A stretch of 64,000 nt of DNA, from sequence record PP430345; one strand, 5' to 3'. The notes below the pieces were generated by a model. That model did not search any database. It was not told the DNA's origin and worked only from the letters and a program-made list of their open reading frames with translations. Below are positions 6,621 to 48,101 of this stretch, piece after piece (position 1 is the first letter of the stretch; each line of letters begins with the position of its first letter). The stretch comes from Escherichia phage vB_EcoM-LTH01. Both the position numbers and the translations under genes were made by a program.

Positions 6621-7850
6621 TTATTCGAATTCTTTAATCAGTTGACCATATCGAGTCATGTATTCCATAACTGCGGCAGAAACAGTCGGGCAACTCTTAC
6701 GCATCAGCGGAATCATTTTCTGACGTTTCGGGTTAACAGTTAGGATAGATGGCTTATCGTTTGGACCACGGAACACGCCCAAGATCAAAGCAATCATCGT
6801 ATCCTTGTTGTTTGCATAATAGTTATTGTACATGAACGTAAGGAAGTTACCTGCACGCTCAAGGAACTTATCATCCGTCATGTCATTATCCATAACCTCA
6901 TCTTCCATGCGACGAAGGCCAGTTTGTGCCAGTACGTAAACAAGGTCGTTCTTACTACGATCAAGTTTATGTTCTTTCACTGCCCCACTAAAGATATCTT
7001 CAATCGGTGGAAGTTCTTTAGCACGTAAATGATAAGCAAGGATCTGTACTTCCAGGCCTTCACCAACTGTACCTGCAAGAGCAACCTCTGCGATAAATTC
7101 ATTAATCTCACCTGCATCATACTTGTACAGAATGTCAGATGCTGTTTTCCATTGACGAGGAGATGAATAAACCGGAGTACTTCGGTTTTCTACGTCACCA
7201 GTATAGAAATGCTCTGGAAACTGCTTCAAGAAACCAATAATGTTCGGGTGCAGACGGAACGGAATCGCATAGTCTTCGATCCACACATCCAGATTATAAT
7301 CAACTTCTGCAATAATCATACGGTTAACCAATGGGCCAGGCATAGAAGTAGTCCCTGCTCCATCAGTATCACGGTTACCTGCACCTACAAACACAGTACC
7401 TTTCGGGAACTTATGCTCACCTGCAACGTGATCAAGAATAACCTGATATGCAGAGTGCTGAGTGCCCAATGGTGCATTTGGCAGTTCATCCAGGAACACG
7501 ATACCTTCCCAATCAGGATCAGTAGGCCAAAAGTTTGGAACTGCATATACGGTACGAGTGACTTCTTTACCAGTTTTCGGATCTGGATAAGAGATCGGAA
7601 TCGGAATACCTGCGATATCTTGTGGCTCTTTATCCGACAGACGAACATCACAAAGGTTATTGCCTACACGATGTGGGAACATGGAATCAGCGATCTGTTT
7701 TACTTTTTCAGACTTACCAAGACCAGCACCACCAAAAAAGAATACGGTCTTTCCGATGGAAGCCCCCAGGCGAATCAGTGGTTCCATATCACGGATACTG
7801 ATACGTTTTTTGAACATGGTTTGGTCCATACGTTGATAAGTTGCTTGCAT
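6621..7850 (-). CDS. MoxR-like AAA+ ATPase
   Basis: Walker A FFFGGAGLGKSEK, Walker B IVFLDELPNAP; adjacent to the VWA protein. Confidence 0.7.
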   Translation of the reverse strand: MQATYQRMDQTMFKKRISIRDMEPLIRLGASIGKTVFFFGGAGLGKSEKVKQIADSMFPHRVGNNLCDVRLSDKEPQDIAGIPIPISYPDPKTGKEVTRTVYAVPNFWPTDPDWEGIVFLDELPNAPLGTQHSAYQVILDHVAGEHKFPKGTVFVGAGNRDTDGAGTTSMPGPLVNRMIIAEVDYNLDVWIEDYAIPFRLHPNIIGFLKQFPEHFYTGDVENRSTPVYSSPRQWKTASDILYKYDAGEINEFIAEVALAGTVGEGLEVQILAYHLRAKELPPIEDIFSGAVKEHKLDRSKNDLVYVLAQTGLRRMEDEVMDNDMTDDKFLERAGNFLTFMYNNYYANNKDTMIALILGVFRGPNDKPSILTVNPKRQKMIPLMRKSCPTVSAAVMEYMTRYGQLIKEFE

Positions 7851-15395: not shown

Positions 15396-15911
15396 ATGAA
15401 AAAATTAGTTTTATGTGGTTTGATTTGTACTCTGTCTCTGGCACCAGGCGTCACTTATGCCAAAGAGAGAGCACAGAAGGTTATTCATAAATGTACGAAA
15501 AAGGATAATTCTGTAAATGCCTTAGCCTGTAATGTCTATATGGAGTCCCGAGGCGAGACGATAAATGGTCAAATGGCTGTTGCCTTCGTTACAATGAATC
15601 GGATGAAAAATGATAAATTCCCGAGAACAATGAAAGGAGTTGTGTATCAAGCCTCTCAGTTTTCATGGACATTAACTAAATCCTCTTATAGCATAACAGA
15701 TAAAGACTCCTGGGAGGGCGCTCTAAGCATCTCCAAGTTTGTACACAAGATAAAAAATAATGAGGTTTTGTATAAAAGGTTTGACCCAACACATGGATCT
15801 CTGTACTATCATACTAAGAAGGTTAAACCTGTTTGGCGTAAACTTCTAAAAAGAACAGTCACCATAGAAAATCACATTTTTTACAAAGACAAAGAGGAGA
15901 AAAAGAAATGA
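15396..15911 (+). CDS. secreted cell-wall hydrolase, SleB/CwlJ-like (Hydrolase_2 family); candidate endolysin
   Basis: N-terminal signal peptide (MKKLVLCGLICTLSLAPGVTYA); NVYMESRGE...GQMAVAFVTMNR matches the SleB-type hydrolase motif. Confidence 0.6.
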   Translation: MKKLVLCGLICTLSLAPGVTYAKERAQKVIHKCTKKDNSVNALACNVYMESRGETINGQMAVAFVTMNRMKNDKFPRTMKGVVYQASQFSWTLTKSSYSITDKDSWEGALSISKFVHKIKNNEVLYKRFDPTHGSLYYHTKKVKPVWRKLLKRTVTIENHIFYKDKEEKKK

Positions 15912-16120
15912 TAAAACGCATGATACTGACATTTGCTGTAGTTATGACATTTTGGCTAGTAGGTGTCAGATATGTAAAGAATGCTTACTTTGATCATGTA
16001 GCCGACGAGGTTTTCATCCAGATCAGTGTGACTTCCATTGTAATGTATATGGCAATGATCTTATCCCTTGTAGCAGCGGAGATGTTATATGAAAAACGTA
16101 AAAATAAAACTACTAGATGA
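15908..16120 (+). CDS. small two-helix membrane protein (70 aa); holin-like candidate
   Basis: Two hydrophobic helices and a charged C-terminus, immediately after the hydrolase gene. Confidence 0.45.
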   Translation: MIKRMILTFAVVMTFWLVGVRYVKNAYFDHVADEVFIQISVTSIVMYMAMILSLVAAEMLYEKRKNKTTR

Positions 16121-42602: not shown

Positions 42603-42863
42603 TTACTTGTTTTCGTCGGAAGGGTCTTTATCTTTTTTCAAAGATAATCCCCAACGGAGGTTGATGAGGTCACTCAACAGGTGTGGGGCCACTACCGTAG
42701 GGGCATAAAGCCATACGTACCATTCAGGCAATGTATTGTTGAATCCATACCAGAGAAAGACGGCAGTCATAGCAGCCATACCTACGTTAGACCAAAACTT
42801 CGTATGAGAAGCTTTATCTGGTTCCACCGCAGAGGTCACTAGGTCTTTGAGAAATTTTAACAT
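42603..42863 (-). CDS. small membrane protein (86 aa)
   Basis: Two hydrophobic helices. Confidence 0.5.
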   Translation of the reverse strand: MLKFLKDLVTSAVEPDKASHTKFWSNVGMAAMTAVFLWYGFNNTLPEWYVWLYAPTVVAPHLLSDLINLRWGLSLKKDKDPSDENK

Positions 42864-42885
42864 AGATCACCTTCATTATCAATGT

Positions 42886-43344
42886 TCATACCATGTGGGC
42901 AATGAGCACTAGAAATATCACTACTGCTGTTCTTATCCATTCCGGTACGGTATTATCCTTCCAAGAATAAACGAACACAAAGGTTTCTATGAAATATTTG
43001 TGAGCGTCTCTAAGAGCGAATTCGTAAACCCATAAGGGGAACAATTCTGGATATTGGATTGCAAACACTTGAATAAGCATGAACGGAATACTTAGGCATA
43101 CGATAAGTTTTTGTCGTAATCCTTTCACTGTACAACCCATAGTGAAAAGCAGTATCGAATCCAATGTCCAGACGACATTAAAATAAAGAGTGATATCGAA
43201 ATTGATTTGCGTAGAGAAGAACCAAAGGATCAGGTTCTCCAATACGAGATAGGCCAGGCAAAGCCCAGCCATTATCTTTGTTCCACTCTCTTTTCGAGTA
43301 GCAAGGATTACGAAACAAATGCCATATATTATGGCTGTAATCAT
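42886..43344 (-). CDS. polytopic membrane protein (152 aa)
   Basis: About four hydrophobic helices. Confidence 0.55.
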   Translation of the reverse strand: MITAIIYGICFVILATRKESGTKIMAGLCLAYLVLENLILWFFSTQINFDITLYFNVVWTLDSILLFTMGCTVKGLRQKLIVCLSIPFMLIQVFAIQYPELFPLWVYEFALRDAHKYFIETFVFVYSWKDNTVPEWIRTAVVIFLVLIAHMV

Positions 43345-43706
43345 TTGCGGTTCTCAATAATTTTGTTTAGTAATTCTCGAATATCCTTCTGTAGAGCGTG
43401 GTTTTCTTCTTTTGCTTCCTTTCGCATATCTGTGATATCGGTCCTAATATCTTGGATCGTATCGGTGATATGTTTTATCTTACGGTCAAGAATGGCATCG
43501 ATACTATCCTTAGTAACCGCAGATTCCTTCAAGCGAAGAACATCTTTTTCAAGCTCACTTTGACGTGACTCTAATTTTTTAAAGTCGGTGTAAAAGATCT
43601 TTAATGCACCCAGCAAAATGAATGTTAAAAGACCCCAAAGTGCTTTCAGAACTGCCATTATATCAACAATCATAAGTCTCCATAGTCGGGCCGAAGCCCG
43701 ACTCAT
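43341..43706 (-). CDS. membrane-anchored coiled-coil protein (121 aa)
   Basis: N-terminal helix (IVDIMAVLKALWGLLTFILLGALKIF) then heptad-like charged region. Confidence 0.55.
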   Translation of the reverse strand: MSRASARLWRLMIVDIMAVLKALWGLLTFILLGALKIFYTDFKKLESRQSELEKDVLRLKESAVTKDSIDAILDRKIKHITDTIQDIRTDITDMRKEAKEENHALQKDIRELLNKIIENRK

Positions 43707-43712
43707 CTAAGG

Positions 43713-44225
43713 TTAAAAGGTGAACTCTGACCAGTCGATATCACCAGGGGAGGTGCTATCAGGGATACGCATGACTTTAACTCTCATCTTGCGAAGATCG
43801 TTATATCTCTCAAGCTCATCGTCTGTAGCATCTCCCAATTCAACAGCATCCTGAAGCGGAACGATAACAGAACCGATCACTTGCAGAATGCCAGCCTTTC
43901 TTGCAGCGGTGCTAAAAGCAGGGTCATAATCTGCCTTAACTACCTGTTTACCGTTGAATGACCAAACACCGCCTTGCAAAGAAAAATCTTTGGGAAGTGT
44001 ATTAAGATCCACAACAGACAAACCACCTGGGTGAAGACGAGTAACCTCTTCACTCTTTGCCCAGCCACGGACAATACTATGTTCATCAAAGAAAACAACA
44101 TATTTCTTTTTGAACAGTTCGCGAGAGTCGTAGAAATCACGACCTTTATCGTCCTGAAAATACTGAACACCTTCTCCAAAAGCTTTAACTTCCGGTGTAT
44201 AAAGCTTGAAGTTATTCATTCTCAT
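43713..44225 (-). CDS. tail fibre assembly protein (Tfa-like chaperone)
   Basis: C-terminal LQDAVELGDATDDELERYNDLRKMRVKVMRIPDSTSPGDIDW resembles the Tfa motif; start moved to the ATG after GGAGGG (track start 44333 overlaps the fibre gene). Confidence 0.65.
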   Translation of the reverse strand: MRMNNFKLYTPEVKAFGEGVQYFQDDKGRDFYDSRELFKKKYVVFFDEHSIVRGWAKSEEVTRLHPGGLSVVDLNTLPKDFSLQGGVWSFNGKQVVKADYDPAFSTAARKAGILQVIGSVIVPLQDAVELGDATDDELERYNDLRKMRVKVMRIPDSTSPGDIDWSEFTF

Positions 44226-44227
44226 AA

Positions 44228-45862
44228 TTAGCCCTCCACCGTTACCCATACGCCAGACATACGCTTCTGGATTGGTTTGTAATAACCTTGGTTTAATCCA
44301 AGTCCCGCTGAAACAACACCAGTGATTACGCAACCTGCCGGAGCACGTACAGGACTGGTATAGTTGTCCCCATTCATTGTCGTTTGTTGCTCAATACCTA
44401 AACGAACATCTTCGATAGTTTGAACAACTACGGCTGGAATAACTGTAACCTGCCTTGTTGCTTGGATTCCCGTAATAGATCCACGAACAGTAATAACAGC
44501 AGTACCTGGAGCAACACCCGATACATATCCACTTTGTGTAACGACAGCAACGTTAGCATTACTGGTGGAATACACTAGCGGCTCGTTGGAGTTGGCAGGT
44601 GTTCTGTTAACAGGGATCACTTCAGAATCGTTAACTTCCACACTAGGGATGCTGCCGATACTGATCGCTGTCAATGGTGTGTATGAAACTATTTTAACCT
44701 GTGCCGATATACCTGTGGAGATAGAGGCAATGATGTTAGTTTCACCTGGTCCAGTCAATCTTACATTACCAGCGCTATCCACGGTTGCAACATTACCATT
44801 CTGAGAGGTCCAAGTAACAGGATATTGGCTCGCCAAGTTTGCAGGGAGAACTTGAGCAGATATCCCTTGGGTAAAACCTACACGATTTGTAATGCTATCT
44901 GGTGTAGTAACAAGTGCAGTTGGTGACAGACTTCCAGTACCTTGTGCCTGATCAGTCTTGATAATGTACATCACTGCGACGTTCTTAGGTCTGTTTTCCG
45001 GTGCAGTCGGAACTACACGGCTTGCATCGAATCGAACATCACCTGCTGGGTTTTTACGATCGTGGTCAGGACCCGAGTTTGAGTTATATTGCGTATAAAG
45101 CGCACCTTGTTCACGATAACCGTGATCAGTACGGATACTTTCGTAACCCATTACACCCGTAATGTTTCGAATCGCATCACCTTGAATAGAACCTAAAGCA
45201 CGACCAGAGTCAGGGTCGTAAGCTCCAGATCCGTGCGCCCATCCACGAAGGAACAATCCACGATAATCAGGGACTACGTTTCGTCCTAAAACTTGGTACA
45301 GTCGTGGGTTCTGAGATGTACTGAATACTTGCCCGTTACACTCCAAGAATCCCGCCGGAGGAACTTGACCAGCCCAAGTAAGAATTGCACCAATCGGAAC
45401 CAGACGAGGCTCAAGCTCATCAATACGTGCGTTTAATCGGGAAACTGCATTATCTAAGTCTTGAGATAAACGAGTAACACGCTGATCAACCGCAGTGATC
45501 TCACGACGAAGATCTGCAACAGTCTGCTCTACATAAGTTCTTAAAGTTGCAACAGATTGTCTTACGTTCGCAACATCTTCACGAATAACTTCCAGTTGAT
45601 TGTTTACTCGTGTTTCGAGTTCCTGAATCAGTCGCTTGTATTCTTCTTCAACCTCTGGAAACTTCTCTTCTACGATCCAATTAAGCCAAGCACCAGACTG
45701 GTGAAGAATATAGTTGAATTCTTCTGCCGCTGGTTTTTGCCCTTTGTCATAGCCCTTTGCTAAAAGGTCATCAATCGGTTTTGATTTGTTAGGTCTTCCA
45801 GTACCAGGAAGGTTAACATCTTGTGCCGCAAAGACAACAATCGGTGTTGTTGGTCTAGCCAT
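44228..45862 (-). CDS. tail fibre protein with coiled-coil, phage tail collar domain and two BIG2-like Ig domains
   Basis: PIGAILTWAGQVPPAGFLECNGQ...NPRLYQVLG...VPDYRGLFLRGW (collar-domain pattern); TSQNGNVATVDSAGNVRLTG and SNANVAVVTQSGYVSGVAPGTAVITV (BIG2-like). Confidence 0.7.
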   Translation of the reverse strand: MARPTTPIVVFAAQDVNLPGTGRPNKSKPIDDLLAKGYDKGQKPAAEEFNYILHQSGAWLNWIVEEKFPEVEEEYKRLIQELETRVNNQLEVIREDVANVRQSVATLRTYVEQTVADLRREITAVDQRVTRLSQDLDNAVSRLNARIDELEPRLVPIGAILTWAGQVPPAGFLECNGQVFSTSQNPRLYQVLGRNVVPDYRGLFLRGWAHGSGAYDPDSGRALGSIQGDAIRNITGVMGYESIRTDHGYREQGALYTQYNSNSGPDHDRKNPAGDVRFDASRVVPTAPENRPKNVAVMYIIKTDQAQGTGSLSPTALVTTPDSITNRVGFTQGISAQVLPANLASQYPVTWTSQNGNVATVDSAGNVRLTGPGETNIIASISTGISAQVKIVSYTPLTAISIGSIPSVEVNDSEVIPVNRTPANSNEPLVYSTSNANVAVVTQSGYVSGVAPGTAVITVRGSITGIQATRQVTVIPAVVVQTIEDVRLGIEQQTTMNGDNYTSPVRAPAGCVITGVVSAGLGLNQGYYKPIQKRMSGVWVTVEG

Positions 45863-48049: not shown

Positions 48050-48084
48050 ATCATAATATCCAGAGAATTAAAAGAAAAGGGAGC
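48050..48084 (-). terminator. internal terminator or attenuator in the tail operon
   Basis: Minus-strand GGGAGC-CTCGT-GCTCCC followed by TTTTCTTTTAATT. Confidence 0.5.
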
Positions 48085-48101
48085 ACGAGGCTCCCTTGAG
48101 G

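Follow-up and report, generated by a model that had tools for sequence, protein, structure and literature searches.

Why would a tail-fibre operon be interrupted by three small genes for membrane proteins? The question is raised by Escherichia phage vB_EcoM-LTH01, of which a stretch of 64,000 nucleotides was analysed (record PP430345; hereafter the window). The window belongs to a Vequintavirinae myophage and shares about 97% identity with Escherichia phages A73 and W70; its list of open reading frames (ORFs) places three minus-strand genes, here called gA, gB and gC, amid the tail-fibre genes. Are their products parts of the virion, assembly factors, exclusion proteins or lysis proteins? The reading that we prefer, and to which we give about an even chance of being right, is that they are non-structural inner-membrane proteins co-expressed with the fibre genes and forming a late lysis-control cluster within the fibre operon, with gC as a putative holin or partner of a holin, gA as a regulator resembling releasin and gB in an accessory role. 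Most likely at least two of the three act in host lysis. As for gC itself, family and gene context point most likely to a class II-type holin, or the partner of a holin, that is expressed late and has been moved into the fibre operon like gene t of phage T4. The analysis shows that the genes are real, which families they belong to, in what genomic contexts they occur and what charge and topology signatures they carry; hole formation, late timing, partner relations and all functional roles are what we infer, the late timing because gC lies within the structural operon.

Are the three genes real? gA, gB and gC are real genes under purifying selection, and both the ORFs and their synonymous divergence confirm that three small membrane-protein genes lie between an assembly gene and a large distal fibre gene, as the original prediction, made from the letters of the window alone, had it. 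The 2.5 kb around gA-gB-gC are 97–98% identical to Escherichia phages A73, W70, A5-4 and A7_1 and 95% identical to UPEC06. Compared with A73 and UPEC06, gA carries 7–9 nucleotide changes and no amino acid change, and gC 15 nucleotide changes and one amino acid change; the differences from these two phages are mostly synonymous and at third positions, which dominate in comparisons with the CB7 genes too (65–80% identical). The sizes first proposed (121, 152 and 86 aa) stand as listed ORFs, but gA most likely starts at ATG 43673 and has 110 aa, rather than the 121 counted from ATG 43706. A GGAGA Shine-Dalgarno sequence lies 3 nt upstream of ATG 43673, nearly all gA homologues open with M-x-x-D at this position and relatives are annotated as the 110-aa form; ATG 43706 falls 6 nt past the upstream stop codon and directly before a perfect hairpin, and for all these reasons the longer form is unlikely. 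Transmembrane helices had been predicted for all three proteins, which describes gA and gB well, gA having a strongly hydrophobic segment and gB hydrophobic helices, and gC only in part, its helices being moderately hydrophobic.

gC and its family in lysis cassettes

What kind of protein is gC? It opens with an amphipathic N-terminus and a SHTKFWSN motif, followed by two weakly hydrophobic helices with a short loop between them and a hydrophilic charged tail. AlphaFold2 (AF2) models the helices at residues 20–41 and 48–72 with a predicted local distance difference test score (pLDDT) of 57.6, the tail reads KKDKDPSDENK, and basic juxtamembrane residues border the helices on both ends. This layout fits what is expected of a holin (less than about 150 aa, at least one transmembrane domain (TMD) and a hydrophilic charged C-terminus), the hydrophobicity being moderate only. 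gC matches PHROG 1322 over residues 1–83 (E=1.3e-29), and among 1.84 billion representatives a search by profile turned up 93 relatives, themselves representatives at 50% identity. All 91 of the relatives that were scanned match PHROG 1322 and 6 of the 91 reach Pfam DUF2644, a family to which that of gC is, by these profile matches, distantly linked. The relatives, mostly 75–90 aa long, run from SHTKxWSN through helix, short loop and helix to SKxLSLRYG and a hydrophilic tail, some with an extra N-terminal (third) TMD; gC shares this SHTKxWSN ... SKxLSLRYG pattern and is a clear member of PHROG 1322, and the prophage members match Vequintavirinae gC back by plain tblastn. What does the family do? 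Every source checked labels PHROG 1322 members 'hypothetical' or 'membrane protein', the PHROG category is 'moron, auxiliary metabolic gene and host takeover', and neither PHROG 1322 nor DUF2644 comes with a function. A literature search on DUF2644 found nothing, scans of gA, gB and gC against Pfam, NCBIfam and PADLOC gave nothing useful, and no relation of gC to named holin families was detectable in Pfam, NCBIfam or PHROGs. It is the gene context that suggests a holin.

The gC relatives of Mu-like phages and prophages come directly after endolysins, which represent at least five enzyme families, and before Rz/Rz1 spanins. In Pseudomonas phage Bise, which is Mu-like, the order is Mor, Peptidase_M15_4 endolysin, gC-family member, i-spanin, transmembrane (TM)-helix protein and small terminase; the endolysin stop overlaps the start of the gC-family gene, and the i-spanin gene embeds a proline-rich lipobox o-spanin. 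Phage VW-6B has a lysozyme, then a gC-family member, then Rz, and in metagenome contigs a VanY/M15_4, GH108, M15_3 or Hydrolase_2 endolysin is followed by a gC-family member and then by spanins. A scan of 185,579 species genomes with a narrowed family alignment yielded 42 betaproteobacterial prophage loci with a gC-family member, in most of which the upstream ORF ends within a few nucleotides of its start. Peptidoglycan hydrolases make up at least 20 of the 27 distinct upstream neighbours (GH108 6, Amidase_2 5, VanY/M15_4 at least 4, CHAP 4 and Phage_lysozyme 1). Do such enzymes need a holin? The endolysins of Bise and of loci L021 and L023 have no evident N-terminal signal sequence and so would need one, and in these three loci no membrane protein other than the gC-family member was seen between endolysin and spanin. 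Holins are typically recognised by just this arrangement, a small two-helix membrane protein lying between Rz/Rz1 and endolysins of interchangeable kinds. The Mu-like cassettes sit just upstream of terminase and head genes, not among tail genes.

The component types that the window has in separate places are all united in one cassette beside fibre genes on a contig of a metagenome-assembled genome (locus L016; DASVDK010000199.1, 171–4144). First in this locus comes a Mu gp48 baseplate gene, then a fibre gene with, judged by eye, a collar-like C-terminus (Pfam has no hit recorded for it), and then a 97-aa gene and the gene of a 110-aa TM protein; a Hydrolase_2 endolysin and an 81-aa two-TMD protein come next, with a 203-aa gene after them, and a DUF2644 protein followed by an i-spanin-like gene closes the series. 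Another setting is found in T4-like Menderavirus phages, in which a three-TMD protein of the gC family is encoded by a solitary gene next to DNA polymerase, on the opposite strand. Such three-TMD members are encoded by Stenotrophomonas phage Moby (MN095772; L011, 6932–7315, plus strand) and by locus L025 (4001–4408, plus strand). The Moby gene is unannotated; it overlaps CPT_Moby_033, which is annotated on the other strand, and an annotated plus-strand terminator comes after it. Both loci have a common upstream ATAAATAGTTC motif that resembles the core of the T4 late promoter; the exact T4 late promoter, TATAAATA, was not found upstream of the Menderavirus-type family members.

How does gC compare with known holins? 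Holin gene t of T4 stands beside tail-fibre gene 38, and gC likewise stands beside fibre genes, in a structural and presumably late operon far from the endolysin, so that the analogy with the location of the T4 gene drawn in the original prediction fits. The T protein itself, with one TMD and a large periplasmic domain, is unlike gC. Class II holins and pinholins (e.g. S68 of phage 21) share with gC the small size, two helices, short loop, basic juxtamembrane residues and charged C-tail, and gC relatives lie between endolysin and Rz/Rz1; gC differs from them in having no dual-start motif, in being unusually conserved and in its weak hydrophobicity, hole formation being a prediction. As a holin, gC would accumulate harmlessly in the inner membrane in an N-in/C-in two-helix topology and at a set time would form lesions depolarising the membrane, with peptidoglycan hydrolases being released or activated. 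gA might modulate lysis, either setting free the exported SleB-like endolysin or adjusting when the holin acts, and gB would be an accessory, at a guess a partner in lysis timing.

gA, gB and the probable lysis genes elsewhere in the window

What could gA contribute? It has one strongly hydrophobic N-terminal TMD (about residues 5–27) and then a charged helical tail of some 80 residues. Across the gA family, the N-flank of the TMD has a net charge of 0 or −1 with a conserved acidic residue and the C-flank one of +1 to +3; gA of the window has 0 and +1, with conserved D4 and KK32-33. Most of the Mu gp25-type proteins tested show gA-like flank charges, and four control i-spanins have N-flanks of +2 or +3, unlike gA. 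Going by the positive-inside rule only, gA is probably N-out/C-in with its helical domain facing the cytoplasm. The releasin of Mu, gp25, is a cytoplasmic protein tethered to the membrane; it has N-out/C-in topology and sets free an endolysin of the signal-anchor-release (SAR) type (PMC9239132). gA is like this DUF2730 protein in its length of about 100 aa, in an N-terminal TMD predicted to be N-out/C-in and in its helical tail, and it likewise shares a genome with an exported endolysin and a gC-type gene. One difference lies in gene position: gA follows a fibre assembly gene rather than an endolysin, and the endolysin is 27 kb off, whereas a releasin gene is expected no more than five genes downstream of an endolysin, with a SAR endolysin as partner. 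DUF2730 has been reported in transposable phages only (PMC9239132). What we propose for gA is a predicted releasin architecture and topology, with no claim of family membership.

Is there a link to the Mu-like cassettes through protein families? TM-helix proteins at the gp25 position (PHROG 462 or 736), whose architecture gA shares, accompany gC-type genes there; those in the cassettes of Bise, VW-6B and L012 fall into PHROG 462. In phi92-type phages gA has a counterpart, gp234 of ukendt, which comes directly after the assembly gene and matches PHROG 462 at 5.7e-7 and PHROG 5345 at 1.1e-4, and the phi92-type counterpart aligns with gA in hhalign at 74% probability; PVP-SE1 gp44 has a weak match to PHROG 736 (E=0.0099). 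A gA profile run against all ORFs of the fetched loci found the known homologues, ukendt gp234, a fibre coiled coil and a weak prophage ORF (E=0.012). PHROG 462 may offer a bridge from gA to the Mu-like TM-helix proteins, if a weak one.

gB is a protein with five to six hydrophobic helices, for which AF2 gives a confident six-helix bundle (pLDDT 81.5). Its helices carry the invariant polar residues D50, D62, S63, Q78, Q92, Q97, H115, E120, D130 and H150. The start of gB overlaps the stop of gA (ATGA), and this overlap suggests that gB is translationally coupled to gA. rV5-type and phi92-type phages, rV5 itself included, have no gB. For every gB homologue, a precomputed match to Pfam PF26221 is on record.

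On which enzyme would these proteins act? The enzyme with which the lysis membrane proteins would probably work is the SleB-like endolysin. Together with the 70-aa gene that overlaps its stop, it lies amid replication genes (helicase, DNA polymerase) and not late genes, which is odd for a lysis pair. In relatives, a SleB-like hydrolase in the replication region is followed by a small two-TMD 'class II holin' candidate (CB7_82 in CB7) (PMC7344957), gp129 has been proposed as the holin of rV5 (PMC3606486), and an Rz/Rz1 spanin pair adjoins terminase (PMC7344957, PMC6658697, PMC6139136). CB7_82 and the CB7 spanin pair have no detectable homologue within the window. A holin has not been firmly identified in this phage group (PMC6658697, PMC3606486, PMC7344957, PMC12210895, PMC13031394), and confirmed holins are late genes (PMC9239132).

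Distribution and rival readings

Where else do the three genes occur? By tblastn of 50,697 phage records, gA is found in 219, gB in 106 and gC in 373. The original prediction had suggested checking whether related phages carry the three genes at this place, and several groups do: the trio is kept in Certrevirus-like, Seunavirus, Mydovirus and Avunavirus groups. rV5-type Vequintavirus retains gA and gC and has a short tail-fibre gene in the place of gB. In Escherichia phage JeffSchatz/Bas55 (L004, 5324–7049), the gB position is held by a 347-aa short tail-fibre gene flanked by gA-like and gC-like genes. gC is also found in phi92-type Phapecoctavirus and in Aeromonas Plateaulakevirus, and there a TM-plus-helix protein again stands directly after the fibre assembly gene. 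Searches for close homologues of the three proteins brought up nothing but relatives on short fragments or on large contigs of phage size, none with an informative name.

Are the proteins part of the virion? Mass spectrometry (MS) of CB7 virions detected CB7_24-31, 36 and 37 and did not detect the homologues CB7_33-35. In the available parts of the rV5 paper, gp29 and gp31 have no MS-detected flag in the supplementary table and are not among the detected proteins of the main text. No such small protein is named in the accessible baseplate and fibre sections on the phi92 structure obtained with electron cryo-microscopy (cryo-EM), nor in the fibre and gene-number passages of the phiTE cryo-EM paper. 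Detection in purified virions, which the original prediction had named as evidence against itself, is not reported in what is accessible of the CB7 and rV5 virion proteomes. As far as virion data of relatives go, a weak kind of negative evidence, the products of gA, gB and gC appear non-structural. Could they still be minor components of the fibre network or baseplate? Their genes lie within a structural operon, the record of phage Paula labels a gC homologue 'conserved phage structural protein', and a band of KP12 in sodium dodecyl sulfate–polyacrylamide gel electrophoresis has been ascribed, by size alone, to a 12-kDa membrane protein. Against this stand the CB7 spectra, which missed the homologues of the trio yet found their neighbours, and the fact that hydrophobic multi-pass proteins are implausible as tail parts; we consider a place in the virion very improbable.

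Several points weigh against a lysis-control cluster with gC as its holin. That PHROG 1322/DUF2644 would be a holin family is a case of guilt by association, drawn from gene context, and gC of the window has no match to the Pfam DUF2644 model (PF10841). Its helices reach Kyte-Doolittle maxima of only about 1.1 and 0.9, the rV5 supplementary table, in its accessible part, records no TMD for the homologue gp29, the AF2 model is too poor for a fold search, and 50% identity to rV5 and 35% to phi92-type phages is an unusual conservation for a holin. gC lies 27 kb from the only endolysin found in the window, while its relatives elsewhere adjoin endolysins and have spanins downstream of them. The candidate holin or pinholin that position would conventionally single out is the 70-aa protein, which rivals gC, and relatives carry similar small candidates (CB7_82, rV5 gp129 and KP12 peg.320). 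With both a small two-TMD protein and a DUF2644 protein present in locus L016, the gC type could be an antiholin or other accessory. The tail of gA is not anionic (20 K+R, 19 D+E, net +1), where a releasin would be expected to have a mostly anionic cytoplasmic domain, and the DUF2730 profile (PF10805) has no hit to gA at E<0.1. Homology of gA to releasins was tried and rejected, hhalign against the Mu-like TM-helix proteins giving only 6% probability, and since the gA profile also picks up a fibre coiled coil at E of about 1e-4, weak hits to gA-type profiles are unreliable. Fold searches with gB brought only generic helical bundles and unnamed viral proteins, no informative match. Missing detection by MS is weak evidence because small hydrophobic proteins are easily missed. 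Finally, all three genes accompany fibre and baseplate genes in three phage lineages, which fits an assembly role equally well.

What would such an assembly role be? The products could be membrane-anchored fibre or baseplate assembly factors, which would tether or organise, at the inner membrane, the trimerisation or attachment of fibres and would stay out of the virion. In the Vequintavirinae, the phi92-type phages (ukendt) and Plateaulakevirus, the counterparts of gC and gA are always inside the baseplate/fibre module, that of gA always directly behind the assembly chaperone, and in rV5-type phages a fibre gene lies between the two; absence from virions is compatible with a chaperone role as well. 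The gC relatives of Mu-like phages and prophages, however, adjoin endolysins and spanins, not tail genes, and the Menderavirus family member is a lone gene beside DNA polymerase. The three lineages moreover share homologous baseplate modules, so that the synteny may reflect common descent and not function. We regard this main rival, for which the conserved synteny is the sole support, as unlikely. A superinfection-exclusion or membrane-protection module, like T4 Imm/Sp or the exclusion genes by receptor-binding genes in T5 and T1-like phages, seems to us distinctly improbable. Regions near fibre genes are known insertion sites for exclusion genes, the products would be small inner-membrane proteins, the category of PHROG 1322 would suit, and gB is patchy in distribution, as expected of an accessory gene. 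No positive evidence emerged for the membrane-acting exclusion module that the original prediction had offered: PADLOC, Pfam and NCBIfam yield no hits, a promoter belonging to the genes themselves is not evident, and the position in the structural operon speaks against early expression. Phages of Escherichia, Klebsiella, Pectobacterium, Aeromonas and other hosts share a strongly conserved gC, where a receptor-specific blocker would be expected to be more variable, and the context of its family is lysis cassettes. The literature on superinfection exclusion in Vequintavirinae held nothing bearing on gA, gB or gC.

Could gA instead be an i-spanin, the cluster then disrupting the outer membrane? 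With the Rz/Rz1-type spanins of lambda, gA shares the gross i-spanin architecture of a TMD followed by a helical domain, and it has weak hits to the Rz-like spanin PHROGs 739 and 7686 (E=2e-3 to 5e-3). Its flank charges are opposite to those of the four control i-spanins, and the probability that hhalign assigns to a match with i-spanins is 0.6%. The alternative frames under and after gA and under gB, inspected by eye, show no evident lipobox ORF, and the N-terminus of gB has no lipobox, which leaves gA with no o-spanin partner; genuine Rz/Rz1 pairs of relatives lie elsewhere, next to terminase (PMC7344957, PMC6658697, PMC6139136). On these three grounds (charges, no lipoprotein partner and the place of the relatives' spanins) gA was rejected as an i-spanin, an idea to which we give hardly any credence. 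The lysis cassette of the original prediction gains support in its holin part, for one gene, as the gC family occupies the holin slot of Mu-like cassettes, and is not supported in its spanin part.

The fibre operon and what the cluster may mean

How are the genes arranged for expression? The features of the operon and of the distant lysis genes are collected in Table 1. The order of assembly gene and gA is unchanged in every lineage sampled. A scan of the region for terminators and promoters found no intrinsic terminator between the fibre genes and gC; there are sigma-70-like matches near gB and gC, yet promoter-like sites are not above chance across the region, and so no own promoter is evident for gB or gC. 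The hairpin in front of gA has a perfect 8-bp stem and a UUCG tetraloop and, as no U-tract follows, probably does not act as a terminator. Possible roles would be to stabilise the mRNA, to serve as a processing site or to damp translation before the membrane-protein genes. CB7 has a hairpin of another sequence at the equivalent position (L003, about 7223–7242), so it is the structure that is conserved and not the sequence; between the assembly gene and the gA counterpart of PVP-SE1, Bas55, ukendt and 2L372X no hairpin is present.

Table 1. Positions of the cluster, its neighbours and the candidate lysis genes elsewhere in the window
Feature	Position	Strand	Remarks
Mechanical ORFs of the cluster	43341-43706 (121 aa), 42886-43344 (152 aa), 42603-42863 (86 aa)	-	coordinates and sizes as originally predicted
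gA, 110 aa, bitopic inner-membrane protein, PHROG 5345 (most likely start)	43341-43673	-	
gB, 152 aa, polytopic membrane protein, six predicted helices, PHROG 7451	42886-43344	-	
gC, 86 aa, PHROG 1322, candidate class II-type holin	42603-42863	-	
Intercistronic hairpin AGUCGGGC-UUCG-GCCCGACU	43684-43703	-	between assembly-gene stop and gA ribosome-binding site
Tail-fibre assembly protein, Caudo_TAP chaperone	43713-44225	-	directly upstream of gA
Fibre gene, collar/Big_2	44228-45862	-	upstream of assembly gene
Distal or lateral tail-fibre gene, 1077 aa	39357-42590	-	GTG start, strong Shine-Dalgarno; directly downstream of gC
Terminator-like hairpin	39355-39336	-	3' of 1077-aa fibre gene
Structural gene, 411 aa	38083-39318	-	CB7 homologue confirmed in virions by MS
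SleB-like endolysin (Hydrolase_2, E=2e-23)	15396-15911	+	N-terminal segment MKKLVLCGLICTLSLAPGVTYA, signal or SAR-like
70-aa protein, two TMDs, basic C-terminus; holin/pinholin candidate by position	15908-16120	+	overlaps endolysin stop (ATGA)

The 411-aa gene is the last of the fibre operon and is followed by a bidirectional terminator. [quoted passage not shown] Within the baseplate operon, a terminator-like hairpin with a T-run (48077–48097) stands between a gp25-like gene and a 494-aa wedge gene; it overlaps an ORF of 44 aa, the counterpart of which has been annotated in UPEC06 and not in A73.

What would a lysis-control cluster in the fibre operon mean for these phages? The widest version of the idea, which we put forward as an unlikely one, is a conserved split lysis-control system common to Vequintavirinae, phi92-type Stephanstirmvirinae and Plateaulakevirus, in which a DUF2644-type holin (gC) and a releasin-like, cytoplasm-facing gA would be encoded in the fibre operon and govern a SleB-type exported endolysin encoded elsewhere. 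If true, the releasin principle would reach beyond transposable phages, and lysis timing might be coupled to the expression of the last-assembled virion parts. The inference on gC, if it holds, would assign a function to PHROG 1322/DUF2644, which is present in hundreds of phage records and many prophages, and would let the scope of the Mu releasin mechanism be probed in virulent phages. rV5-like and phi92-like phages have a broad host range and are widely used in therapy and biocontrol, and gC as a holin candidate would provide a handle on their lysis timing and engineering.

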